Part shown: one piece after another, positions 1 through 24,406 of the stretch
Numbering within the stretch: position 1 is the stretch's first letter
Layout of the letters: every line of letters starts with the position of its first letter
Assembly (NCBI GenBank): GCA_963749445.1
Contig: CAVVMJ010000003.1
Location: 715 to 64,714 of the forward strand
Reading direction: 5' to 3'
Source: an uncultured bacterium
GTDB taxonomy: Bacteria; Patescibacteriota; Doudnabacteria; UBA920
DNA: 64,000 nt
The notes under the pieces: model-generated
The model's input: the letters and a program-made list of their open reading frames with translations, nothing else
Database searches by the model: none
Told to the model about the DNA's origin: nothing
Made by a program: the position numbers and the translations under genes

Positions 1-38
1 CATAGAAGATCAGCAACTACCGCAGGGCCCAGGAGTGC

Positions 39-770
39 GTGGTTGACCTTATCAACGCCAACATCATTGAGGGCGTCCACCGCTCCGGCAGTCTAACCGC
101 CAAGTTTTTTACCAACACCTACAAAGATAATGTTCAGGCCGAGGACGCTCCCAGGGCCATTAAAGATTTTACCGCTTACAACAAAAAGGTCAACTGGCAT
201 TATTTTGGCAAAAAGACCGGCCAACTTAAGTATGTCTCGGTTATGGAACTCCAGCCCGTAAGTAAAAAGATTCATTTCCATACCGTGCTGTTTAACCAGC
301 CCTTTGTCCTGCAAAAAGACCTGCAAGACCTTTGGGGTTATGGGATTGTGGACATTCGTAAAATCTATGACCACAACTACGGTCAGTATATGGCTAAATA
401 CCTCGGCAAAAACTTTCGGGACTACCACGCCGCCGGTAAAAAACACTACTTCCGCTCCAGGGGCTTGGTTGAAGCCCAAATCCTTCGGCACGACGCTTCG
501 GTTTCGGACATTGCCGACCACTTGCCTGATTCTCTAATCCTGCACAAAATTCAGGGCATTAAGTTTCCGGTCTGGAACGGCTTTGAGTTTGTTGACCAGG
601 TTATGGACAAAACGGATTACAGCCTCAAGGGCTTCCCCCAAATCGTGGACTGGATTCAAGACACCATTGTCAATGTAAAGCAACATCCCCAGCCCCTGCG
701 GTTTAGCATTAGCCCCACGGACAGTCAAGCTCCAGCAGAGATGCCGCCTGATTATGATTTAGCATTTTAA
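39..770 (+). CDS. rolling-circle replication initiator (HUH endonuclease, Rep_1/pC194-like)
   Basis: HUH motif HFHTVLF is followed ~35 aa later by the catalytic Tyr motif GQYMAKYLGK (YxxKY), the motif order of RCR Rep proteins. An in-frame stop at 3-5 means the gene starts near 39. Confidence 0.55.
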   Translation: MVDLINANIIEGVHRSGSLTAKFFTNTYKDNVQAEDAPRAIKDFTAYNKKVNWHYFGKKTGQLKYVSVMELQPVSKKIHFHTVLFNQPFVLQKDLQDLWGYGIVDIRKIYDHNYGQYMAKYLGKNFRDYHAAGKKHYFRSRGLVEAQILRHDASVSDIADHLPDSLILHKIQGIKFPVWNGFEFVDQVMDKTDYSLKGFPQIVDWIQDTIVNVKQHPQPLRFSISPTDSQAPAEMPPDYDLAF

Positions 771-779
771 CTTAAAGCT

Positions 780-1109
780 ATGGACACAAAATTAACCCCA
801 GAAGCCACACAAAAATACCAATCGCACAATGACGGCAATTTGGGCCGCGCTCTTTGCAGGTGTATTTTCTGCCGCTATGTCCGGCATATCAGATATTCTT
901 TTTTCTATTCCTGCCCGTTTAAAGTCTGTCCCAGTTGCCGACCGGATTTGGATTGGAGCCGTTATAAAGCTCCGAGGGCTAAGCTTCCGCAAGATAAAAG
1001 CGGTGCGCCGAAAGGCTGGCAATTTAACACCCTGCAAGGCCTGACTGATGAGGAGCGGCAGCATTGGGAAGACTTGGATGAAAAGGATAAAAATTTAAAG
1101 GGTGCTTAA
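780..1109 (+). CDS. hypothetical Cys-rich small protein
   Basis: 109-aa ORF with CxC...CxxxC...CPSC cysteine clusters. No family recognised. It overlaps an alternative 71-aa hydrophobic ORF (829..1044). Confidence 0.2.
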   Translation: MDTKLTPEATQKYQSHNDGNLGRALCRCIFCRYVRHIRYSFFYSCPFKVCPSCRPDLDWSRYKAPRAKLPQDKSGAPKGWQFNTLQGLTDEERQHWEDLDEKDKNLKGA

Positions 1110-1818
1110 TAATTTATGATATTGAAATTTTATCTCTGGCCATTTTTTGCCCTCTGCCTGGCGGTCGTGATTATCGGGCAACCGAAGCGACCATAAAAAA
1201 ATTTTGTTTTTGTTTGGATATTTATTTTAAGCCTCCAACTTTTTGACTATTGTGAGATTACAGGAACCGCACCCCGGACAGGAAATAATATCCAGGTCAA
1301 AGGTTTCCTCTTTGGTGGCAGTCCAGGAGTTGCGGCACCTTGGACAGGTAATCTCGTAGACAAACTGGGCAGTCATAATTTTCATAGTGGATAAAGTTAA
1401 GAATTAAAGAAAGATTTTTGTTTTTGTTTTTATGTTTGTTAGACCATTTGCTTTACAGCGATATACGCGGAAACTTTCTTTCCGAAATCGTGATAGTCGC
1501 TGGATTCCGGGTCAACAGAGCTTCTCAACTCCATAAAGTAGTTGATACTTCTCTGCAGCGACGCCTTGATGATATTTGACTTCATCTCCGGCGTCAGACC
1601 CGGATTCTTGCTAACAGGCCTTGTAAACAGTCTTTTTGACTTTAGGCATATTAACTCCTTTCTTTGCTTAATTATTATGGGCGAACAGACTGGCCGAAAG
1701 TTTTAGGTGTCAAGGGATTAAAAATATTTTATGCCCAACGGGAAATAAATTATTTTTACCCTTGATCAGCCTAAAAACCGGACAGTATAATGAGAAGCCA
1801 TAAGAAGCAAAGACAGGG

Positions 1819-2208
1819 TTAAATTAAATTTTGTTCCTTAAAACTTTTATGGGATTCGCCGGTTACGATAACGTGGTCAAGCACTTCAATGCCGATCAGC
1901 TTGCCGGCATCCTTAAGGCGCTTGGTTACGGCGATATCCTCATCTGACGGCTCCAGACTCCCGCTCGGGTGATTATGGGCGAAAATAACCGCGGCAGAAT
2001 TCTTTAAGATAGCGGTTCTAAAACATTCCCTCGGGTGAATAAGACTGGTGTTGAGTGTGCCGATGCTGATAATCTCCCTGCTGATGATTTGGTTTTGGGT
2101 GTTTAAGAAAAATACGCAAAAATGTTCCTTGTCAGCTTTTCCTAAAATCTCCGCACTTGCCGGCAATCTCCAGTGGGCTGTATACGCCATCCGGCATGGC
2201 CTTAACAC
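1819..2208 (-). CDS. RadC-like JAB/MPN domain protein (UPF0758)
   Basis: AHNHPSGSLEPSDEDIAVTKRL JAMM-type motif and upstream conserved EHFCVFFLNTQN block. An overlapping out-of-frame ORF at 2132..2389 (SPLEIAGK vs SAEILGK) suggests the gene may extend to 2389 across a frameshift. Confidence 0.7.
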   Translation of the reverse strand: MLRPCRMAYTAHWRLPASAEILGKADKEHFCVFFLNTQNQIISREIISIGTLNTSLIHPRECFRTAILKNSAAVIFAHNHPSGSLEPSDEDIAVTKRLKDAGKLIGIEVLDHVIVTGESHKSFKEQNLI

Positions 2209-2677
2209 TTAAATTGCCGTAGACATACTTCTTGGCTTTCTTTCTTGCCTCCTCATCGCTCTCGGCCACAAAACGATAATTAACATTAACCTGGTATTCC
2301 ATAAATTTCAGATTACTTATTTTCCACCCACAGAATTTTGGAAGGCCCGGCCGGTCAAGGGTGAAGCCCGCGGCGATTTTATGCCCCACGGGAAATAAAG
2401 AAGCCGCCCCTTGACGGGACGGGACCCAAAATTAAAATCGGAAAAAATAAGTAAGCAAAAGTAAAAATATGTATCAATCAAAGCAATTAAAATCAAACTG
2501 CCGTGATTTCCCTGGATGACTTCAAAGCCTCTTTGGGGGATTATGCCAAGCGGTTTACCGATGAGGAATTAGAACGGCTTAGGCAGGATATGTATCAGTT
2601 GGCTGATATTGCCTTTGACGTTTGGGCTGGCGAGCGAAAGGGTGTATAATATTTTGGCTAAACTTTTTGATATTTTT

Positions 2678-3970
2678 ATGACTACTGAAACTTCAAAAAA
2701 TGCCGTGATTTACTACCGAGTTTCCACGGCTGACCAAGTGGACGGCTTTAGCCTGGATAACCAAAAAGAGGCCTGCCAACGGTATGCCGATGACAAGGGT
2801 TTTAATGTCGTTAAGCTTTTTTCCGATGAGGGCGAATCCGCCAAAACCGCTGACCGCCCTGGGCTTCAGGCAATGCTAAAATTTGTGGCCAACAAGAAAA
2901 ACAAAATCAACTGCATTATCGTCAACAAAATTGACCGCCTGTCCCGCAATGTTAACGACTACTCGGCCATTAAGGGATTACTTGATAAACTGGATGTTCA
3001 ATTAGTTTCCACCACCGAAGCCATTGGCAATAATTCCTTTGGTAAGTTTATGGGCAATATGATGGCAAGTATTGCCCAACTGGATAACGATGTCAGGAGC
3101 GAGAGGGTTAGCGACGGTATTTTAAAATGCTTGCAATCCGGCCGCTCTCCCCACCACGCGCCGCTCGGCTACTTAAACCAAAACCACGGAAGAAAAGACA
3201 TATCAATTGTCCCGGACCCGGAACGCGCCAACACAATAAAATTTTTGCTAAACGAATTTTCCAAAGGCATTTACACCCAGGAAGAGCTGCGGGTTAAGGC
3301 TAACCGGCTTGGTTTGCGTTCCAAAAAGGGCAAGGAAATCGGCACCCAGCTCATCCATAAGATTTTAGCCAGTAAGTTTTACGCGGGCATTATCGTTAGC
3401 AAATACGGCGAATTTAAAGGCACTCACCCCGCCCTTATCACCGAAGAAACTTTCCATAAAAACCAAAAGCAGTTCCCCAAAACCACCAAAGGCGACTACA
3501 TAGCCGGCAGCCGGACTAATGAGGCTTTTCCCTTAAGACATCAAGTAGACTGCGGCCTTTGCGGCCGTCCTTTGACCGCCTGTTTTTCAAGAGGCAAATT
3601 GGGTACCCTTTATCCATATTACCGCTGTTACCAAAAGGCCTGTCCGTCTAAAAAGGCCATAGCTAAAAAGACTTTGGAGGACGAATTCTCCAAGTGTTTA
3701 ACCAAAGTTACCCCGACCCCCGAAATCCTAAACGCCTTTAGAAAAGTGATTATTGATGTCTGGCAAAACCGTTTTAAGGAACTAAACCAAAAGCAGGAAG
3801 TCATTAAAAAACAGGTAGAAAACCTCACGGCTGAAAAAGCCAAGCTCCTTGACCTCGTTAAAAGAAATTTACTGCCTGATGAAGATTTTAAAATTGAATA
3901 CGCCAAAGTCAAGGAACAGCTGGCTGACAAACAAATTGAATTGGATGAAATCAAAAACCCAGGACTTTAA
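2678..3970 (+). CDS. large serine recombinase (resolvase/invertase N-terminal domain + recombinase + zinc-ribbon domains)
   Basis: N-terminus AVIYYRVSTADQ...DGFSLDNQ (catalytic Ser motif), a C-terminal Cys cluster CGLCGRP...YYRCY, then a coiled coil. The ORF track starts at 2609, but M at 2678 fits the family; a TATAAT box lies at 2645. Confidence 0.85.
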   Translation: MTTETSKNAVIYYRVSTADQVDGFSLDNQKEACQRYADDKGFNVVKLFSDEGESAKTADRPGLQAMLKFVANKKNKINCIIVNKIDRLSRNVNDYSAIKGLLDKLDVQLVSTTEAIGNNSFGKFMGNMMASIAQLDNDVRSERVSDGILKCLQSGRSPHHAPLGYLNQNHGRKDISIVPDPERANTIKFLLNEFSKGIYTQEELRVKANRLGLRSKKGKEIGTQLIHKILASKFYAGIIVSKYGEFKGTHPALITEETFHKNQKQFPKTTKGDYIAGSRTNEAFPLRHQVDCGLCGRPLTACFSRGKLGTLYPYYRCYQKACPSKKAIAKKTLEDEFSKCLTKVTPTPEILNAFRKVIIDVWQNRFKELNQKQEVIKKQVENLTAEKAKLLDLVKRNLLPDEDFKIEYAKVKEQLADKQIELDEIKNPGL

Positions 3971-4174
3971 CCCTGACCGCCTCTGTGGAGTTTGTTTTTG
4001 ACTTTATAGCCTCTCTTCCAAGCAACTGGCCTAAAACTACCTACTGGCAAAAAACAAAATTGATGAGTTTGATTTTTCCCAAAAAGCCTATTTACAATTA
4101 TCAAACATTTACAACCCCAAAATTATCTTATATCTTCCAAGCAAAAACCGCCTATGACGGCGGTAAAAATGCTT

Positions 4175-4250
4175 TGGTGGGTTGGGCGGGGATCGAACCC
4201 GCGACAAACGGCTTAAAAGGCCGCTGCTCTACCAACTGAGCTACCAACCC
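4175..4250 (-). tRNA. tRNA-Lys(UUU)
   Basis: Cloverleaf on the minus strand: acceptor GGGTTGG/CCAACCC, D arm GCTC-AGTTGGTA-GAGC, anticodon stem GCGGC/GCCGT with loop CTTTTAA (anticodon TTT), T arm GCGGG-TTCGATC-CCCGC, encoded CCA. Confidence 0.8.
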
Positions 4251-4361
4251 AATTAAACGATTCTCTGATATTTTACAATAAAACCCCAATTTTATCAAGC
4301 CGTAAAATTTTGACAAAACTAACAAATCCCCTACACTTAAGCTAAAGACTAATCTAAATTT

Positions 4362-4724
4362 ATGAACTCAAACAAAAAAACTTGGTATACTCTATTGTTG
4401 GCCGTGCTAGTCGTGGTAATTTGGGCCATTTGGCGGTATAGCGCCAAGGGACCGGCAAGCGTTACCTCTCCAGCCGAAACAGGTAATGCCAACCAAACGC
4501 AGCCCGCGGCGGCCGGCAACCAAACTCCGAGCGGCGATGTTTGGCAAGGTATCTTAAAAGTTTCCGATAACCCCAAAAAAGGCAACCTCATGTTGGTTAT
4601 GGAAAAAACCACTGTCTATATTAATACCAGCCGCGACTATTCCGATTTAATCGGCCGCCAAGTTAACGTCAGCTACGAAGGAACTGTGGATAGTTTCCAG
4701 CTCGGAGACATTGTTGGGCAATAA
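4362..4724 (+). CDS. hypothetical membrane-anchored protein
   Basis: N-terminal TM helix (WYTLLLAVLVVVIWAIW) followed by a soluble domain. No family recognised. Confidence 0.35.
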   Translation: MNSNKKTWYTLLLAVLVVVIWAIWRYSAKGPASVTSPAETGNANQTQPAAAGNQTPSGDVWQGILKVSDNPKKGNLMLVMEKTTVYINTSRDYSDLIGRQVNVSYEGTVDSFQLGDIVGQ

Positions 4725-4808
4725 ACAAATTGACAAGATTGACCAGGATTGATCATGGTTGACATGATTAGTGGCCATATCTTGTCAATCTTTTAAATCC
4801 CTTAAATC

Positions 4809-5759
4809 TTGTTCAATCATTTTATGATACTTGAAACTTTTAAAACTTTTGGCTATTTTGAACTGCTGGACACCGGCAGAGGTTTTCGTCTGGAACGGTG
4901 GGGCGAGGCGGTGTTGGCACGGCCGGATCCGCAAATCATTTGGCCAAAATCGTTAGCCGATTCAGAATGGGATAAGGCTTGGGCGATTTTTAAATCAGGC
5001 AGCGGCGATGGAAAAGGGAAATGGGATATCAAAAAAAATCTTCCCGTTCCTTGGACCGTTAAGTTCCAAAACATCCGATTCTTGCTCAAGCTCTTCCCTT
5101 TCAAACATACCGGGCTGTTTCCCGAACAGGCGGCGAATTGGGAGTTTATGATTCAAAGATTAAAAGATTCAACCCATTCGACAAGCTCAGGGCAGGCGAT
5201 TGAAAGATCAAAAATTCTGAATCTTTTTGCTTATACGGGAGGCGCTACGATAGTACTGGCCAAGGCCGGATGCTTTGTCACCCACGTGGACGCTTCCAAA
5301 CCGGCCATAACTTGGGCCAAGGAAAATTATAAGTTAAATTTCGAAAATAATGCGCCCTTCGACCACGCTCAGGGCGAACATTCCCAACATATTGGGAATG
5401 TCCGCTGGATTTTGGATGACGCGGTAAAATTCGTCAAACGCGAACTTAAGCGCGACGCCAAATACGACGGCATAATTATGGATCCGCCGGCCTTTGGCCA
5501 TAGCCCTTCCGGCAAGACCTGGAAATTTAACGACGACCTACCTGGGCTGTTAGCCGATTGTGTTCAGCTGCTTTCGACCAACGCCAAATTCCTCATCATC
5601 AACGGCTACGCCACGAATTCTTCCGCTTTGGCGCTCAATAATTTACTGGAAGACGCCATAAGAAATCGCGGCGGACAAATAGAGTTTGGCGAACTGTGCT
5701 TAAAACAAAAAAATGAACGCTTGATATCTACCGGCATCTTCGCCCGTTGGTCATCTTAA
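4809..5759 (+). CDS. class I SAM-dependent (r)RNA methyltransferase, RlmI/RlmK-like
   Basis: LNLFAYTGGATIV (motif I) and DGIIMDPPAFGHS (motif IV), as in 23S rRNA m5C/m2G methyltransferases. Confidence 0.65.
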   Translation: MFNHFMILETFKTFGYFELLDTGRGFRLERWGEAVLARPDPQIIWPKSLADSEWDKAWAIFKSGSGDGKGKWDIKKNLPVPWTVKFQNIRFLLKLFPFKHTGLFPEQAANWEFMIQRLKDSTHSTSSGQAIERSKILNLFAYTGGATIVLAKAGCFVTHVDASKPAITWAKENYKLNFENNAPFDHAQGEHSQHIGNVRWILDDAVKFVKRELKRDAKYDGIIMDPPAFGHSPSGKTWKFNDDLPGLLADCVQLLSTNAKFLIINGYATNSSALALNNLLEDAIRNRGGQIEFGELCLKQKNERLISTGIFARWSS

Positions 5760-6220: not shown

Positions 6221-6362
6221 AAAAATAGACTGACAAGATTTAAATGATTTAAATGATTTAAATGATTGACATGATTTTTAATTGGCAATCTTGCCCGCCC
6301 GCCGAAGCCCCGGCGAAGGCTGGGTCATTCTTGCGAAGTCTAGTCAATCTTGTCAATTGATT

Positions 6363-11357: not shown

Positions 11358-11651
11358 CTACAATAGCTCTACATCAAGTTCCTTAAACTGATTCAGCGTC
11401 ATTCCCACGACTTTTTTGCTGGCAAGCAGCTTTTTTGACGTTAAAAAGTGCTCCCGGTTGTCGTCTTTTAACCGCACAAAGACATTGCCTTCGCTGGCGT
11501 CGGACAGGCGTTTCATGTGCAGGATGATTTTGTGCTTGTTTAGGGCTTTGCCCGTGATTTCGCAATCGTCGCCGTCCAAAATTTTAATTTTTTTGTCCTT
11601 TTCCTCGTTCTCCATTATCTCCCCGACTTCAAAAATGTCTTGTATAGTCAT
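11358..11651 (-). CDS. hypothetical protein flanked by family A repeats
   Basis: 97-aa ORF with no recognisable family, bracketed by direct copies of repeat A. Confidence 0.3.
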   Translation of the reverse strand: MTIQDIFEVGEIMENEEKDKKIKILDGDDCEITGKALNKHKIILHMKRLSDASEGNVFVRLKDDNREHFLTSKKLLASKKVVGMTLNQFKELDVELL

Positions 11652-11666
11652 TTGTTCCTTTTTTCT

Positions 11667-11753
11667 GTCATTGCGAGTGCAGCCGAAGCAATCTTTATCT
11701 TAGGATGAGATTGCCGCGTCGGCCGGATAAAGCCCCGGCCTCCTCACAATGAC
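11667..11753. repeat. palindromic MITE-like repeat, family A
   Basis: Same sequence as 11223-11301, in direct orientation. Confidence 0.8.
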
Positions 11754-11758
11754 ACTTA

Positions 11759-12445
11759 TTATTCTAATTTTTTCTTGCTAATAACAACCTGTGAAGGCCG
11801 AATGACCTTACCATTTAATTCAAACCCGGTTTGGACTTCCTCTATAATAATCCCGTCGTCCTGGTCGCTTTCCGTTTCGCGGATGGCTTCGTGGAAGTTT
11901 GGGTCGAATTTTTTGCCGATGGCTTCTATTTTCCTGACGCCCAGTTCCCCAAGCGCTTTGTCCAGCTGCATAACTATACCGTCTACGCCCATTTGCCAGT
12001 TGGCGTATTTTTTCCTGAATTCCTCTGCTCTAACCCCCTCCCCGCCCTGCGGGCGGTACTCCCCCTCAGCAAGGGGGAGAGGCTCCGCACTTATCTCTGC
12101 ATTTTCCGCGGAGCTCCCCTCCTTTTCAAGGAGGGGTGTCCCGCCTTGGCGGGACGGGGTGGTTGGAGTATATTCAGGCAGATGTTTAAGCGCCTGCTCC
12201 AGCGAATCAATCGTGGGCAACAATTTTACCACCGTAACTTCCTTGGCAAATTCCAAAAGTTCCCTGTTTTCCGCTTCCTTGCGGCGCTTATAGTTTTCAA
12301 AATCCGCGGCCGCGCGCTTCCAGCCGTTCATGGCCGAATCCAAATCGGTTTGGAGTTTTTCCAAAGTTATGTTGCCGTTTTGACTGTCATCGGCCGGCTG
12401 ATGGTTATCGGTTTGCTGGTTTTCTTCTGACATAATTGGAAACAA
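11759..12445 (-). CDS. grpE: nucleotide exchange factor GrpE (with an internal GC-rich palindromic insertion)
   Basis: GrpE N-terminal helix WKRAAADFENYKRRKEAE and C-terminal domain. A ~145-bp GC-rich multi-hairpin insertion at 12030-12175 stays in frame (PSRQGGTPLLEKEGSSAENAEISAEPLPLAEGEYRPQGGEG). Confidence 0.85.
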   Translation of the reverse strand: MFPIMSEENQQTDNHQPADDSQNGNITLEKLQTDLDSAMNGWKRAAADFENYKRRKEAENRELLEFAKEVTVVKLLPTIDSLEQALKHLPEYTPTTPSRQGGTPLLEKEGSSAENAEISAEPLPLAEGEYRPQGGEGVRAEEFRKKYANWQMGVDGIVMQLDKALGELGVRKIEAIGKKFDPNFHEAIRETESDQDDGIIIEEVQTGFELNGKVIRPSQVVISKKKLE

Positions 12446-18649: not shown

Positions 18650-21301
18650 TTAGAGCAGCTTAATGTAAGCGCGGGTGGTGTCGTCCAGCTGGCCGGTGGG
18701 TTTTAGGCCGGCATTTTTTTGGAACCTGATTAACGCCGCGCGCGTCCGTGGCCCAAAATAAATTGTTTCATTGCCCGGCGCCCCCGCGCCGTATTTTGCC
18801 AGAATAAAACCTTGGGTATTCAAAAATTGCTGTAAAAACTTAACGTCGTCGCCCTTCATCCCAAATTTTAGATTGCGTGGAAAATTATAAGTCGCCGCGC
18901 TCAAAACCACGGTTGTGGGAGTAGATGAAGAAACCGGAGTGGTGGTTGCGACCGTAGTTGTCGCGACAGGCAATGCAACCGGCGAAAAATAAACAGAACC
19001 GCCGCCGACCGATAATGTTGGTACAACCGATGCGGATGACGATGCGGCCGGCGGGCTGACGATTGTAAAACCCGTTGATTGGACTTCTTCCGCGTTGCCC
19101 ACGCGGTCAGTGGAGTAAAAACTAATTTGATGTTGGCCGACGCCGCTAACGCTAACCGGCGTCGCAGTCGCGTCTAGAAACGTTGAATCAAAAGTGGACG
19201 AAGCCTCCTGCCATTGCCCGCCGTCAAGCTGGTACATAATTTTGTAAATTCCCGATGTCTGGTTTTCCTGCCCGGCGATTATCTGATCGCTCGCCGCCAA
19301 ATCAACCTCCACCCCGCCGACAAAATCCCCGTCCGCGTTTTTATCGCCTAAAACCGTAACCGATGACACCGGCGACAACAAATCCAAAGACTGGTTTTGG
19401 TCCAGCGTGGCGGAAGGAACAATAACACGGTCGTCGCTGGTAAAATTTATTGTCTGGTCGTTAGTAAAATTTAAAGTTAATTCAGCCGTGGATGTCGCGG
19501 TAATAGGCACGCCGCCATAATAAGCGGTACTAACGATTTGTCCGTCAATAATTTTGGATGAATAAAAATCAAAAGTCCCGTTGTCCGTGGCAATAAATTT
19601 AATAGTATAGGTATGCCCCGGCGGTAGGAAAGCAAATTTATCATGATCTAAAACATCATATTGGACTCCGTCAATATTATAATCAAAACTGCCGTCCGGA
19701 TTTAGACCAACATGGTTGCCAAGTTCGTCATAAACTTGCAGATTGACAGGGCTGTGCACGGACACCTGCTCGCCGTCGAAATGGCATTCTGATGAGTCTT
19801 GCGTTATTTTAGTTTCCGGTAAATTATCGCCAGTAATAATGTTCTCAACCTGCTGCCTTATGCCATCGTGGGTAAGCATGGTGCCATGTAACTCATCCGT
19901 ATCCAGAACATAATAATTTTGTGTACCTTTTATATTGCTGGCGGAAATTATTGGCACTGTCCCATCACCGGCCACATAGTTTAGCTTATAATCTCCATTG
20001 CTACCAATTAAAATTTGTCCTACTGTTCCGCTCTGACAACCCATAATGTTGTAAGTTTGCATACCGCTGCCAGAAAAATCCATATTGTCAAAACCCGCAC
20101 TATGAAAAATCCCCGATTGGTCAATCAAATTTGAATTTCCTCCCAGATCCTTTAAGGCCTTTGTTGAGTCGGCAAAATTGTAAACTTGGCCGCCAATTAA
20201 GGAAACGCTAGAGTTTAAACTACCCAAATAACCAGTGGAGTGATTAAAATACTCCTGGCTGGGCAGCATTTGATAAACTGCCGGCATATTTTGACTGATT
20301 TTTTTCATTTCAGCCGGATCAAGTCCGATAAACCATTTTTTTACTCCAAGCGAGTCGCCATAAAGCAACATTTTCGCCGATTGTGGAGCGCCTAAATTCG
20401 GCGTACCAACAAAAACCAATTTGTTGATTTTACCCGCGTATTCCGGATGGTCATAAAGCAAACGTTTGATTAATAATCCACCTTGACTATGAGCGACTAT
20501 ATCAATTTTGCCTGTTGTACTTGAGGCGACAAGCGTATCAATTTCCGGCTTGAGAAAATTATCAGAATTCTTTTTTATATCGTCCCGCCAGTCATAAGGA
20601 AATAAAAATAAATTTGGATTGGTGCTGGTTGAATAGCCTTTAGCAATTAAATCAAACACCAATTGTTTCGAATAATCAAATGTCGGATGAGGTGCTCCTA
20701 AAACTTGTCCTAATGTTAAGCTAGCATCTACTGGGTTGCCGTTTGAATCGAAAGCTAAAGGATCCATAAAACCATCGGACGGCTTTAATATACTTGCCAT
20801 CCTTCCTATATCTGGCCACAAGATTTCACTGCCTTTATCAATTTCCGTTCCCAAAGTGCCTGGGATTATCAATAATGGCGATGTTATTACAGTGGAAACG
20901 TCATTAAAAACGCAAGTTATGGTAACATTGCCATTCAAGCCATCCATTTCCACCCCGTCCTCTATGGGAATAAAATTCCCGTTGCCGTCACTGCTTGAAC
21001 AGTTAACGCTTCGCGTTTTCCAACCGGGCTGATTATCCTCGTAAAATAGATAATCGTTTGTTCGCACATTAATTTCCGAGGATCCTTGTCCTCCAGTCGT
21101 TGTTGTTTGAATCTGAAAGTCCGGGAGCAAATTAAAGCTACTACCATTTTTTCCGTAGCCGTAAAAATTAAAAACTCCGTCGCCGCCAATAGAATTCTTT
21201 ATAACTACCAGCCTTAAACTTGACCACGGAGAAATAACCATCGCGAAAGTTTGCCATGGTAAAAAGGTCAGACAAATTATAACGATTAATTTTTTATACA
21301 C
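18650..21301 (-). CDS. secreted alpha/beta-hydrolase lipase with C-terminal peptidoglycan-binding domain
   Basis: Signal peptide; lipase nucleophile elbow IVAHSQGG; C-terminal PG_binding_1-like LKFGMKGDDVKFLQQFLN...GPRTRAALIRFQKNAGLKPTG. Confidence 0.65.
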   Translation of the reverse strand: MYKKLIVIICLTFLPWQTFAMVISPWSSLRLVVIKNSIGGDGVFNFYGYGKNGSSFNLLPDFQIQTTTTGGQGSSEINVRTNDYLFYEDNQPGWKTRSVNCSSSDGNGNFIPIEDGVEMDGLNGNVTITCVFNDVSTVITSPLLIIPGTLGTEIDKGSEILWPDIGRMASILKPSDGFMDPLAFDSNGNPVDASLTLGQVLGAPHPTFDYSKQLVFDLIAKGYSTSTNPNLFLFPYDWRDDIKKNSDNFLKPEIDTLVASSTTGKIDIVAHSQGGLLIKRLLYDHPEYAGKINKLVFVGTPNLGAPQSAKMLLYGDSLGVKKWFIGLDPAEMKKISQNMPAVYQMLPSQEYFNHSTGYLGSLNSSVSLIGGQVYNFADSTKALKDLGGNSNLIDQSGIFHSAGFDNMDFSGSGMQTYNIMGCQSGTVGQILIGSNGDYKLNYVAGDGTVPIISASNIKGTQNYYVLDTDELHGTMLTHDGIRQQVENIITGDNLPETKITQDSSECHFDGEQVSVHSPVNLQVYDELGNHVGLNPDGSFDYNIDGVQYDVLDHDKFAFLPPGHTYTIKFIATDNGTFDFYSSKIIDGQIVSTAYYGGVPITATSTAELTLNFTNDQTINFTSDDRVIVPSATLDQNQSLDLLSPVSSVTVLGDKNADGDFVGGVEVDLAASDQIIAGQENQTSGIYKIMYQLDGGQWQEASSTFDSTFLDATATPVSVSGVGQHQISFYSTDRVGNAEEVQSTGFTIVSPPAASSSASVVPTLSVGGGSVYFSPVALPVATTTVATTTPVSSSTPTTVVLSAATYNFPRNLKFGMKGDDVKFLQQFLNTQGFILAKYGAGAPGNETIYFGPRTRAALIRFQKNAGLKPTGQLDDTTRAYIKLL

Positions 21302-21313
21302 TTGTTAGAACAA

Positions 21314-21667
21314 TTAAAATGCAACTTGAATTGAAGAAAGACGGTATAAATTCAAAATTAATAAAGAAAAAATAAAAATGATAAAAACAACTATCCAAAG
21401 AGCAACTCTATTCTTAATATTCTTTCTTATTATTATTAAAAAAATCGCCGTGAAGAAAAGGCCAAAAAATTCTAATAATATCAGATTGCTCCATAAGCCA
21501 GCATTACCATAGCTATCTAAAAAATTAGGTCTCCAAACCTGGTAAGATCCATTTTTAAGAGAGCTGACGGTTGCATAATACATTTTGTATGCTGGGCTCC
21601 ACAACACTTCCGGCACCACGAACATTGCCAAAAATATTCCTAACAAAATTCTTTGCAGTTTTGTCAT
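21314..21667 (-). CDS. hypothetical membrane protein
   Basis: 117 aa, three TM helices. Confidence 0.3.
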   Translation of the reverse strand: MTKLQRILLGIFLAMFVVPEVLWSPAYKMYYATVSSLKNGSYQVWRPNFLDSYGNAGLWSNLILLEFFGLFFTAIFLIIIRKNIKNRVALWIVVFIIFIFSLLILNLYRLSSIQVAF

Positions 21668-21749
21668 TTTGTTTCCTTTCGTTTTATAAATTACCCTATC
21701 TTAATAATATCAAACCAAAAACCGCTGTCAATAAGCGGTTTAAACTGGC

Positions 21750-22280
21750 TCATTCCCACCGCTTGAACAAGTTGCTGACAAGCCCGTTTTTTATACTTCT
21801 GTAAATTTTTACACATAACGCACCCAATATATCCGATACAAATATCACAACAAGTAAATTAGAGAATACGATTAAATATAAAATAAGTCTTTTTGAAACA
21901 TCGTAACTATCGTATTGAAAATGGGTAACTAAAATTAGAGGGTATGAGATAAGTAAAAACCCAAAATCCGTAAAGTTAAACCAGCCCGGCTCATAAAACA
22001 AATTAAAAATTGTTGAAACAATGACTAATCCTAAACTTACACCCAGAACAATATAACCAATTTTTGAAAAGAATAGCCGCTTTCCTTCTGCTTTTGGATT
22101 CTTTCGATAAAAAGAATAGACCTGTTGAAAGAAAGGAATGGAAATAAAAGCCAAAACTACTCCCCCACCCAATACTTGCGACATATCCCCGATGGATACC
22201 AAGAACAAAAAAAGCACAAGCGTTATCCAAGCACTCACAATAGTAAAAAACACGTCTTTATAAAGAAAATATTTTCGCAC
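21750..22280 (-). CDS. hypothetical membrane protein
   Basis: 176 aa, multi-pass. Confidence 0.3.
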   Translation of the reverse strand: MRKYFLYKDVFFTIVSAWITLVLFLFLVSIGDMSQVLGGGVVLAFISIPFFQQVYSFYRKNPKAEGKRLFFSKIGYIVLGVSLGLVIVSTIFNLFYEPGWFNFTDFGFLLISYPLILVTHFQYDSYDVSKRLILYLIVFSNLLVVIFVSDILGALCVKIYRSIKNGLVSNLFKRWE

Positions 22281-22334
22281 TGCAAAAAATTATTCAGTTA
22301 ATTTTATATTTGGTTTTTCTTCAAAGTATTTGCC

Positions 22335-22859
22335 TTATTTGGGTAAGGGTAAACCTAATTTTTTTAGTGGCAAATATTCAAAATAGTACTGGCACCCAAC
22401 GGAAATAATATAATCAAGCGTGTCTTTATAAGCTGGATGTTTGAACCAGTCGCTTAAAATGTAAATATATTCAACTTCAATATTAAGAGCTGACATCAGC
22501 TTCTTATATTGCTTCTTTTTAAAATCGCAGGTTTGCAATTTTTCGTCTACCGAACCAGCAACTTTTTGGAATTTCATTTCAATGATGAAGAGCGTGTTAT
22601 TTACAATAACATAAAGCGCCTCATCTGGAAGTAATTTTTTGGAAATTATTTTTTTGTAATCAACCTTCTGCGATTCCAAATATTTGTACAGCCCGTTTTT
22701 CCTGTAGCTTTTTGCCACTTCTTTGCCGTTGAATAAAATTGTATTACCGTGTTGAACCGTGTAACCTTTAGTCTTAGATAAAAGGGTTAAAATATCTATT
22801 TTTCTTTCAAACTTTAAGCCAGTTTGAGTGTTGGCACCACCTTTGCCTTTTTCAATCAT
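22335..22859 (-). CDS. putative type II restriction endonuclease (PD-(D/E)xK)
   Basis: PDEALYVIVNNTLFIIEMKFQK gives a PD...ExK nuclease motif. Lies immediately downstream of, and co-directional with, a DNA methyltransferase. Confidence 0.45.
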   Translation of the reverse strand: MIEKGKGGANTQTGLKFERKIDILTLLSKTKGYTVQHGNTILFNGKEVAKSYRKNGLYKYLESQKVDYKKIISKKLLPDEALYVIVNNTLFIIEMKFQKVAGSVDEKLQTCDFKKKQYKKLMSALNIEVEYIYILSDWFKHPAYKDTLDYIISVGCQYYFEYLPLKKLGLPLPK

Positions 22860-22864
22860 AAAGA

Positions 22865-23816
22865 CTATTTAAACAATTCGGCTTGCTTGACCCCGATCTT
22901 GTTGATTAATTTTATTGTTTTTGAGCTTTCAATTTTTATAGTCGCCTTATTTAGTTCCGCGACTAAAAGTCCAAGCTCATTATATCTTTTTATGGATAAA
23001 TCCAAGTATTTTTTCTCTAGATCCATACCTATAAATTTTCTTTTAAGAGCACTGGCGGCAATGCCGGTGGTGGAACTACCAGTAAATGGATCCAAAATAA
23101 CATCACCCTCATTGGTGCTGGCAAGAATAATTCGCTTGAGCAAATCTATGGGTTTTTGGGTTGGGTGTTTGCCAAACTTTTTTTCAGCGGGTTTTGGCGT
23201 TCCCATTGACCAAACCGAACGCATTTGGAGCCCTGGCTTTTTTAAGCGCATCTTCCGGCCAGGTGCCGTTTTTCATCAAATCATAATTAAAAATATGTTT
23301 TGCCGTTTTGTCTTTTCTTGCCCAAATTAAAGTTTCGTGGCTGGCAGTAAAAAATCGACAACTTAAATTAGGTGAAGCGTTCGGTTTAAACCAAGCAATA
23401 TCATTAAGCACATGAAAACCAGCGACCTGCAAAGCAAAGCCGCATTGATAAATTGAGTGATAAGTTCCACTAATCCAAAGCGTACCCGACGGCTTTAAAA
23501 CTCTTTTGACAGCCTGTATCCATTCAAGGTGGAATTCAAAATCTTTTTTGAGACCATTGCTCTTGTCCCACTCACCTTTATTTACGCTCACTCGCCTTCC
23601 GGCATGAACACTAAACCCGCCATTGGAAAGTAAGTAAGGGGGGTCCGCAAAAACCATATCAACAGAATTTTCAGGCAACTGCTTGAGTATATTTAAACAA
23701 TCAGAGTTATATAAGACAAAATCACTCTGAATAAAATAAGGTTTATCCTGAACCCCAGAAAGGATTTTGGTGTTAGCCTCCATATGCTTTTTTTTAGTTT
23801 TTTTCTTCCTTTTCAT
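22865..23816 (-). CDS. beta-class N4/N6 DNA methyltransferase, split by an apparent single-base frameshift near 23225
   Basis: N-terminal part has DMVFADPPYLLSN (motif IV). C-terminal part has HPTQKPIDLLKRII and VILDPFTGSSTTG (motif I). The two ORFs overlap at 23184-23251 and the junction falls in an A6 run. Confidence 0.8.
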
Positions 23817-23845
23817 ATAGTATACAATCGTTCACCAATTGTCAA
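23817..23845 (-). promoter_or_regulatory. sigma70-like promoter (TTGACA-N17-TACTAT) abutting the methyltransferase start
   Basis: 28 of 30 nt identical to the promoter at 13423-13451. Confidence 0.45.
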
Positions 23846-24406
23846 ATAAATACTTGTGGATAAGTTTTTTGAGGCTCTCTTTTAGCTAATTTTAGCATTT
23901 TTAGGGCGGTTTAACCAATTTTAAAGGCCCGGGTTGGAGCCTTTGGTTTTATTGATGAATGATAGCTGGTTGGTGTCAGGGTTTAAATAGAAATTACCAT
24001 CTGATATGCGTATTTTCAGTTGTCCGATTTTTTCGGGCAACTCACTTACTTCCTCGCAAGCTTTTGGGAATAAGATAAGATACGTAATCTAGAATTTGGT
24101 TTTAGTGTCGGCGCATCCGTTAAGTAAAATTTACCTTCTGGTGTCCGCATTTTCAGGCGGTCACATTTTGTGACGACCTCGCGGCTATCCTGCACAATGA
24201 TTTTCAAACTGTGACATTTTGTCACGGTTTCATTTTTTATAGTTGAGGGCAGTCCTCTGGCGTAAGAGTCCTAAAGCAGAGGGCTGTCCTCAATCTCAAA
24301 ACAATACAATTTTAAAGGCCCGAGTTAGGGGCATGTGGTTTGAATAACGATAGATTTTCTCCCCCGATAATAAGGCCGATAAATCGGCAGACTACGGGGC
24401 ACACTA

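Follow-up and report, generated by a model that had tools for sequence, protein, structure and literature searches.

A probable decaying, mosaic element at tRNA-Lys in a Doudnabacteria genome and its family of large serine recombinases

Transfer RNA (tRNA) genes are classic targets of tyrosine integrases, and the large serine recombinases (LSRs) that have been characterised target, to our knowledge, protein-coding or intergenic sites; we also know of no characterised LSR whose own stop codon lies on the far side of its attachment site, attP. Here we analyse a stretch of 64,000 nt (hereafter the window) from an uncultured bacterium of the Doudnabacteria (Patescibacteriota; NCBI GenBank assembly GCA_963749445.1, contig CAVVMJ010000003.1, positions 715 to 64,714 of the forward strand). 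Positions 1-4250 of the window are probably the right-hand ~4.2 kb of a small, decaying, mosaic integrated element with an LSR and a rolling-circle replication initiator (Rep), inserted at a tRNA-Lys gene and belonging to a large family found mainly in Patescibacteria. The family of LSR/Rep elements, hosted mostly by Patescibacteria, or Candidate Phyla Radiation (CPR) bacteria, is apparently undescribed.

The described systems that come closest differ in their enzymes. The integrative and conjugative elements of actinomycetes (AICEs) measure ~10-20 kb, integrate at the 3' end of tRNA genes in a way that keeps the tRNA functional, encode a rolling-circle Rep and are modular; the one serine-integrase variant cited is integrated in thiC, not in a tRNA gene (PMC2440964). 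In Archaea, 'suicidal' tyrosine integrases of the SSV type target tRNA genes by a site inside the integrase open reading frame (ORF), and integration splits the gene (PMC7253208, PMC8371274). The attP of mycobacteriophage BPs lies near the 3' end of the repressor gene, and integration into a tRNA gene alters the C-terminus of the repressor and hence its behaviour (PMC4557955). A large survey of LSR attachment sites mentions tRNA zero times (PMC10083194).

Recombinase reading frames and their tRNA targets

The right end of the element carries the following features:

2503-2649, plus strand: 48-codon ORF, partner of the LSR, conserved in related loci
2678-4239, plus strand: LSR pseudogene, with the Pfam domains given below (the ORF list puts the start at 2609)
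4147-4164, minus strand: intrinsic-terminator-like hairpin with a T-run, directly 3' of tRNA-Lys (terminator scan)
4175-4250, minus strand: complete tRNA-Lys(UUU) (ARAGORN; anticodon ttt, CCA encoded)
4175-4181, no strand assigned: inferred crossover region (attR core) TGGTG/GG with the break after 4179, made of CCA, the discriminator and the first acceptor-stem bases

The LSR combines the catalytic domain of a serine integrase with a recombinase domain and with a zinc ribbon in which a coiled coil is embedded, and its frame is no longer intact. Pfam identifies Resolvase (PF00239, 7.5e-35), Recombinase (PF07508, 2.8e-09) and Zn_ribbon_recom (PF13408, 5.8e-06), PHROG identifies an integrase (phrog_95, 1.9e-87), and the matches in PDB include the catalytic domain of TP901-1 integrase (1.4e-14). 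The sequence YYRVSTADQ is present, and S15, R13 and other residues are invariant in an alignment of 22 homologues (A1). The AlphaFold2 model of a close relative, P0002, contains long antiparallel helices at residues 347-394 and 400-423.

A profile made from alignment A1 brought up 412 relatives in genomes of GTDB species representatives; the clade comprises these 412 loci and 1,581 clusters at 90% identity (E<=1e-10). We analysed the best 79 of these 412 loci, mostly from Patescibacteria with some from Acidobacteriota, Nitrospira and Verrucomicrobiota, and surveyed the protein tails among the best 120 protein matches; the loci nearest to the window come from three metagenome-assembled genomes of Candidatus Doudnabacteria. 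An earlier note on this DNA, made from the sequence alone, had called a serine recombinase beside a tRNA gene uncommon. This is a fair description of the literature open to search, in which we found no account of tRNA-targeting LSR elements in CPR bacteria, and it does not apply to Patescibacteria, given the 412 relatives.

At 71 of the 79 loci, the reading frame of the LSR stops within a tRNA gene read in antisense (Glu 55, Ala 10, Lys 3, Arg 2, Met 1), overlapping it by 33-69 nt in a constant phase relative to the tRNA body; of the 120 protein matches, ~100 end in ..LVxxxGIEPxxxG. The window has the like arrangement: its integrase gene adjoins the 3' end of an intact tRNA gene, and the last 65 nt of tRNA-Lys are the antisense template for the C-terminal 22 LSR codons (ORF 3985-4239), as is also the case in L002 and L244. 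The closest relatives of the LSR end in ...ALVGWAGIEPATNGLKGRCSTD, which is what the 3' two-thirds of tRNA-Lys encode in antisense, and the window ORF 3985-4239 encodes the same tail in another frame. The earlier description of a tRNA-Lys 3' end facing a large serine recombinase gene was thus right as to both genes, and has to be amended in that the LSR ORF overlaps the tRNA in antisense, with an attachment (att) site that would lie inside the LSR gene itself.

Tandem or duplicated copies in three loci of other subfamilies (L026, L056 and L057) are identical through the LSR 3' end plus 7-8 nt of the tRNA, and then diverge. Past this breakpoint the LSRs at internal junctions have an alternative tail with the shared motif [FW]NxLIxxI[KR][KR]W (for example DYCIENLHPLILDIRRW, TYCIEHWNTLIQQIKQW and ISKRFNEIIGEIKRW), which also ends a minority of the database proteins (P0024, P0032, P0100 and P0105) and the LSR of L009. 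A hidden Markov model (HMM) of this tail yielded ~40 significant fragments, all on the LSR strand and all upstream of the LSR, except those that form the C-terminal end of LSR ORFs of the excised-form or tandem type. At 19 loci the nearest tail fragment follows, in frame, 6-11 nt of tRNA 3' end (e.g. GTAGTCC), and the left-end fragments bound elements of 4.8-10 kb in the 19 loci with both ends defined. The core shared by the two ends measures 6-11 nt in single copies and 13-14 nt in two tandem arrays.

Upstream of the LSR, neither the window nor most loci were found to contain a long direct repeat of the tRNA 3' end. The earlier note had named the lack of a direct repeat there as a refutation; as a criterion the repeat was rejected after the tandem junctions had revealed the short cores, and since single copies share only 6-11 nt, with a short remnant of LSR-tail sequence marking the left end instead, its absence is no valid refutation.

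Two relatives mark the corresponding position in the subfamily of the window. The contig of L161, which is 88.5% identical to the window over 2504-4179, stops after TTGGTG, that is at window 4179, and the sequence of L003 departs from the window at exactly the equivalent of 4179, matching the end of the L161 contig. The crossover thus appears to fall 5-8 nt inside the tRNA 3' end, a position that is approximate. Taken with the alternative tails, this points to an att site within the LSR ORF, where integration would swap the last ~20-30 codons by a chemistry that we take over from known LSRs.

Some of these loci have peculiarities of their own. L057 holds a perfect 226-nt direct repeat (2054-2279 and 11493-11718, 9.4 kb apart) whose right copy ends 7 nt inside tRNA-Glu, and ~95 nt with T-arm-like sequence separate its LSR stop from the tRNA. 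Just past the inferred crossover of L003, beside which no tRNA was found, positions 2501-2768 are a 268-nt, 100% inverted copy of 11495-11762, 9 kb upstream, which is either the product of a recombinase-mediated inversion or an assembly artefact. In L009, an LSR with the excised-form tail (3224-4903; ..LVDHCIQNLNPIIQDIQKWYEYLGQIKYSKI*) occupies the central part of a Paceibacterota contig of 11 kb and has no tRNA near it; the ends of the contig do not overlap, and the locus is a candidate extrachromosomal or tandem form.

The hairpin at 4147-4164 sits within the coding tail of the LSR (residues ..AKTAYDGG..), and alignment with L161 and L002 shows a stem that is kept and a loop that varies. From its place inside the LSR tail it follows that the element provides the terminator of tRNA-Lys, the same nucleotides doubling as LSR coding sequence and antisense tRNA terminator.

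Small recombination directionality factors (RDFs) are encoded beside int in TP901-1 and SPbeta. The ORF directly in front of the window recombinase, which the earlier note had proposed as such a factor, is real: it encodes 48 aa with the family consensus MISLxxFKxLLGxxAxxLSDEELExxRxDxYQFAxLAFDxW, its protein has 62 phmmer matches among the 79 loci, and in 49 of the 73 eligible loci a homologue stands on the same strand within 500 nt directly upstream of the LSR. The protein has no relative in Pfam or PHROG, and a profile search of PDB returned weak EF-hand-like noise (E >= 0.008). Since this ORF accompanies the recombinase as a conserved and genuine partner, a role as RDF or regulator is plausible, and we regard it as a candidate for either.

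The conserved core of the family is this ~50-aa partner ORF followed by an LSR of ~510-520 aa, usually with an HUH Rep ahead (28 of 65 eligible loci have a PF23343 Rep no more than 1 kb upstream of the LSR), the remainder being variable cargo: PIN toxins, a sigma-like regulator, an Eco57I-type methylase and unconserved 400-aa ORFs. An ORF of ~400 aa upstream of Rep was considered as a capsid gene and rejected, as it is not conserved between elements.

On the proposed life cycle, the element would enter a tRNA gene 5-8 nt inside its 3' end, tRNA-Lys(UUU) in the window and tRNA-Glu in most relatives, restoring the terminal tRNA nucleotides and supplying the terminator hairpin. When integrated, the recombinase ORF would run into the tRNA in antisense and end in the tail ..LVGWAGIEP..; in the excised or tandem state it would run into the left end of the element and end in [FW]NxLIxxI[KR][KR]W. 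The excised circle may then replicate by the rolling-circle route with Rep, and the small ORF may help to control directionality. We further suggest, tentatively and as something possible rather than likely, that the exchanged C-terminus is a built-in state sensor, the excised circle encoding a conserved amphipathic tail and the integrated copy a disordered tRNA-antisense tail, with the two isoforms and the ~50-aa partner differing in stability or directionality. If true, this would add a new means of directionality control for serine integrases, and the family would offer a large natural set of LSRs aimed at a near-universal tRNA sequence.

Decay and mosaic structure of the window copy

The called LSR product of the window has 430 aa, against 505-520 aa for nearly all of the best 120 homologues and 518-519 aa for its closest relatives (P0002, 89% identical; P0003, 83%; P0129, in the same 90% cluster). 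A protein of 430 or 453 aa ending at 3970 is thus not the full product of the gene, which continues in two other frames to 4239: frame 1 runs from 2678 to ~3952, frame 2 to ~3976, and frame 3 to the stop codon at 4237-4239 inside the tRNA. Two +1 frameshifts account for these changes when the window is aligned with L161 and L002: 1-nt insertions in the A-run 3952-3957 and at 3976. When both inserted bases are removed, an ORF of 519 aa results that is 95.2% identical to P0129 without a gap. In the AlphaFold2 model of P0002, residues 431-480 form a confident helical subdomain after the coiled coil, missing from the 430-aa product, and residues 481-518, including the tRNA-encoded part, are disordered (predicted local distance difference test, pLDDT, < 50). 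By this model, the frameshifts would remove a folded C-terminal subdomain.

To the left of the recombinase module, the element part of the window contains:

1-770, plus strand: 3' two-thirds of an HUH rolling-circle Rep gene (called ORF 39-770), PF23343 REP_ORF2-G2P
780-1109, plus strand: 109-aa Cys-rich ORF, which travels with this Rep lineage
1185-1230, no strand assigned: conserved non-coding block of 46 nt, 95.7% identical to L241 1620-1665
1227-1385, minus strand: 52-aa zinc-ribbon ORF (CxxC...CxxC), with weak zinc-ribbon Pfam matches (E ~1e-3)
1710-1791, plus strand: palindrome copy 1 (56 nt, 1710-1765) with promoter; imperfect, GTCAAGG...TTTATGCCCAACGGGAAATAAA...CCTTGAT
1819-2208, minus strand: RadC-like JAB/JAMM gene, cargo (PF04002, 1.5e-42; phrog_10276, 2.7e-40)
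2132-2389, minus strand: 85-aa ORF upstream of RadC and overlapping it (ORF list)
2360-2438, plus strand: palindrome copy 2 (2360-2418) with promoter (TTGACG, 16 nt, TAAAAT), preceding the 48-aa ORF and the LSR

The assignment of the first gene to the HUH Reps, made in the earlier note, passed the HMM check: it scores 61.1 bits against PF23343 (cutoff 27.8), matches phrog_3584 'replication initiation' (3.6e-22), and has readable motifs in FFTNTY, HFHTVLF (HUH) and YMAKYLGK (catalytic Tyr). Its homologues P0122, P0123 and P0125 are 307-317 aa long, share the start MFTNHTLKIAG and have ~74 additional N-terminal residues, and the gene begins to the left of the window. DNA alignment with L242 and L241 reveals an extra base at ~6-8, so that the gene is not intact and the ~74 N-terminal codons outside the window would be out of frame with 39-770; the window Rep appears accordingly as a pseudogene or an N-terminally truncated product. 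The nearest annotated relatives are the Reps of small rolling-circle Firmicute plasmids (1.5-8 kb) and the VP4 proteins of microviruses, and we infer that members of the family may replicate by rolling circle after excision.

Could the element be intact and active, its three frameshifts being sequencing or assembly errors or being bypassed by ribosomal frameshifting? One insertion does fall within five successive A (3953-3957), each of the three is +1, the remainders of the ORFs are free of other stops, and the LSR, once corrected, shares 95% identity with the intact P0129. But the host ORFs elsewhere in the window, up to 1058 aa long, are intact, and three indels in 4.2 kb, when the long host ORFs of the remaining 60 kb show none, are not general assembly noise. 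Moreover, two further relatives (P0128/P0130 and P0004/L003) are independently broken at other positions, and two shifts 24 nt apart are unlike any known programmed frameshift site. We consider an intact element quite unlikely; the window copy, judged from its reading frames, is most likely immobile.

Its two modules have different closest relatives. DNA homology to L002, L161, L244, L003 and L004 starts at 2497-2504 in all, which is the start of the small ORF, and the relatives of the Rep (L241-L243 and the P0123 contig) carry different LSRs. As the 48-aa ORF with the LSR (2497-4250) and the Rep module differ in this way, the window copy is a mosaic, whose Rep and LSR modules would come from different lineages. 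In L241, an LSR of another clade (2059-3599, 29% identical) is linked to a Rep of the window type, and it too ends in an antisense tRNA, tRNA-Leu(gag), with the tail ..EWCPGQESNLH... Among the relatives of the LSR module the nearest, L161 (294-3645), carries as cargo an Eco57I/MmeI-type methylase fusion and a PIN-domain gene and has no recognisable Rep.

The same mosaic could have arisen from two separate elements, nested or in tandem: a remnant of the Rep lineage of L241 (Rep_B) lacking its own LSR, made of Rep, the Cys-rich ORF, the zinc-ribbon ORF and the palindrome, would abut a module of the window LSR clade (LSR_A), the 48-aa ORF with the LSR, at tRNA-Lys, with RadC inserted between them. 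The Rep_B relatives (L241 and the P0123 contig) do have an LSR of their own right after the palindrome, which in L241 targets tRNA-Leu; homology to every LSR_A relative stops sharply at 2497-2504; the palindrome is duplicated either side of RadC; and tandem arrays are common in the family. A tandem junction would however need a remnant of an LSR tail, a tRNA fragment or an att-like core, none of which is present in 770-2500, and modular exchange within a single element accounts for the same data. We hold the two-element history to be doubtful, though the least improbable of the alternatives considered here, and it differs from a mosaic in history only, not in the present nature of the region.

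The left boundary of the element lies beyond the window edge, and given that bounded relatives measure 4.8-10 kb, it is expected 0.6-5.8 kb to the left of the window. Searches for tRNA repeats, the tail motif and the core gave no second att junction within window 1-2677.

Several points weigh against the interpretation of 1-4250 as one decaying integrated element. Its left end is absent from the window and was not found in the close relatives L002, L161, L244 and L004 either; with this end unmapped, we infer from the architecture and size range of the family that 1-2496 belong to the same element as the LSR module. In the tRNA-Lys subfamily no tail motif was detected: searches by HMM or regular expression for the tail motif and by 7-mer for the core gave nothing convincing in the window, L002, L161, L244 and L004-L007, the lone match in L161 lying inside a methylase ORF. 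No circular contig was found, the small contigs having no terminal overlaps. Finally, local assembly errors are a conceivable source of the frameshifts, one of which falls in an A5 run.

A single decaying integrated element remains the reading that we prefer, and the kind of element can be narrowed further. Proteins of the Rep_trans/MobT type act as transfer relaxases in streptococcal elements, and the window could in the same way hold an integrative mobilisable element whose HUH protein is a transfer relaxase and not a replication initiator. An HUH protein with a serine recombinase and small cargo would fit, no second replication function is seen, and the conserved palindrome near the genes could act as an oriT. 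This is unlikely, since the best matches of the Rep are initiators of 1.5-8 kb rolling-circle plasmids and microvirus VP4, along with PF23343 and phrog_3584, and the scanned ORFs of L048, L056 and L161 include no coupling protein or type IV secretion gene. More generally, no FtsK/Tra-like conjugative transfer genes were found in the element part of the window, L048, L056 or L161.

An integrated single-stranded DNA (ssDNA) phage, that is a microvirus- or inovirus-like prophage, is very improbable. The Rep family is common to Microviridae VP4 and inovirus gpII proteins, and inoviruses with serine recombinases, as well as inoviruses in CPR hosts, are on record (PMC6813254). But neither the ORFs of the element part of the window nor L048 and L056, relatives with both ends defined, gave a capsid, Zot/pI or other PHROG structural match; the large ORFs ahead of Rep lack conservation from one element to the next; and no close relative of the LSR exists in IMG/VR, where the best match is 30% identical. 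The plasmid- or ssDNA-phage-like integrated replicon of the earlier note survives, then, as a mobile element with an LSR and a Rep of the rolling-circle type by tRNA-Lys, with the corrections that both genes are frameshifted and that no capsid or morphogenesis genes were found.

Cargo, palindromes and flanking sequence

The element part of the window has a GC content of 0.443, against 0.474 for the remainder. The stretch 1100-1800, which the earlier note had described as AT-rich and non-coding, is indeed AT-rich (GC 0.397, or 0.40 against 0.47 for the host) but not merely non-coding: it holds the zinc-ribbon ORF, the 46-nt block and the 56-nt palindrome.

The 109-aa ORF downstream of Rep is 49% identical (E 3e-35) to a 111-aa ORF directly 3' of Rep in L242 and L243. 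It matches Zn_Tnp_IS91 weakly (E 0.058); an IS91/ISCR-type rolling-circle transposon was considered on this account and rejected, as the Rep resembles plasmid and microvirus Reps and an LSR is present. Minus-strand ORFs of 55 aa occupy the relative position of the 52-aa zinc-ribbon ORF in L241 and the P0123 contig, and there is no detectable homology between the 52-aa protein and its syntenic counterpart in L241. A TTTTGTTTTTGTTT repeat related to the 46-nt block flanks the zinc-ribbon ORF on both sides. The block itself is 95.7% identical between window and L241, versus ~76% in the Rep coding region; it forms no stable hairpin (z 0.07), and it may be an origin or terminator.

Palindrome copy 1 is predicted to fold into a DNA hairpin of -13.8 kcal/mol (z -4.57), and a promoter scan identifies its right arm as the -35 box of a sigma-70-like promoter (TTGATC, 18 nt, TATAAT). 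The two copies share a direct repeat, D1 (1726-1749 and 2376-2399, 96% identical), and bracket the RadC cassette as a direct repeat. L241 has a homologue of the palindrome ahead of its LSR, in which both sides of the middle stem are altered. The earlier note had seen a pC194-type nick site in a CTTGATC at ~1757, and this does not hold up: the heptamer lies at 1761-1767, within the right arm of the palindrome and the -35 box of the promoter, and CTTGATM occurs 13 times in the window versus 10.5 expected, a chance frequency. The palindrome and the 46-nt block are the candidates for the Rep origin, and nothing in either marks a nick site.

The earlier reading of a RadC-like JAB protein is borne out: the PF04002 match covers profile positions 15-120 of 121, and the HxHx7SxxD metal-site motif of the family is readable as AHNHPSGSLEPSDED. 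RadC has no counterpart at the equivalent position in any related locus. The 85-aa ORF that overlaps it has no Pfam or PHROG match below 0.01 and no homologues in related loci.

Beyond the right end, a ATTGACAAGATT motif recurs as direct and inverted repeats at window 4717-4801 and 6223-6362, with three tandem 9-nt GATTTAAAT units at 6228-6263; these repeats, which may be operator sites, flank the genes for the methyltransferase and the response regulator, located just outside the element. Homologues of the right-flank genes (123-aa ORF, SAM methyltransferase, response regulator) are present in the gene table of the P0003 contig, for which no DNA was available, ~6 kb from the element of that genome and in inverted order; after them comes an 85-nt gap that could hold an unoccupied tRNA-Lys. 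Further into the window, 21000-24000 is low in GC (0.33-0.39) and contains, both on the minus strand, an N6/N4 DNA methylase gene (23187-23831) and a PD-(D/E)XK-like ORF (22338-22868); this stretch is probably a small island of restriction-modification genes.

Comparison with known systems

The window copy itself is of modest interest, being a broken, mosaic member of its family. The family matters more, as a large and coherent clade of serine integrases that appears to do the job of tyrosine integrases at tRNA genes, with the att site in its own reading frame. It provides concrete, testable attP/attB predictions for hundreds of LSRs, candidate integration tools for Patescibacteria/CPR bacteria, which are genetically hard to manipulate, and a natural experiment on the effect of the LSR C-terminus on activity. 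For annotation, the many 'recombinase family proteins' ending in ..GIEPxxxG represent read-through into tRNA genes, and frameshifted copies like that of the window would be relics.

In enzyme architecture, the LSRs of this family resemble the integrases of phiC31, Bxb1, TP901-1 and A118 and those of the TndX/TnpX type, with a resolvase catalytic domain bearing the serine of YYRVSTxxQ, a recombinase domain, and a zinc ribbon into which a coiled coil is inserted; unlike the characterised LSRs with their protein-coding or intergenic targets, they would target tRNA genes.

Functionally, the closest systems are AICEs such as pSAM2, which are likewise small and modular, target tRNA 3' ends and use a rolling-circle Rep after excision. 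AICEs have a tyrosine integrase with Xis, long identical att segments and FtsK-like transfer genes (PMC2440964), whereas the present element has an LSR, a 6-11-nt core, no transfer genes seen, an att site predicted to lie in the integrase ORF, and hosts among Patescibacteria.

With the archaeal SSV-type integrases the family shares topology only, that is an att site in the ORF and a tRNA target; the present enzyme is a serine recombinase and lacks the tyrosine fold. The split in the SSV type removes a large part of the enzyme, whereas here integration would exchange the last ~20-30 codons, the integrated copy keeping all recognised domains. Similarly, BPs alters the C-terminus of a repressor by means of a tyrosine integrase, and here it is the C-terminus of the serine integrase itself that would change. 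Integration at tRNA ends together with a Rep, an att site inside an integrase gene, and a tail changed by integration are thus each known elsewhere; what appears to be new, as judged from sequence comparison, is an LSR family with the att site in its own ORF at a tRNA gene.

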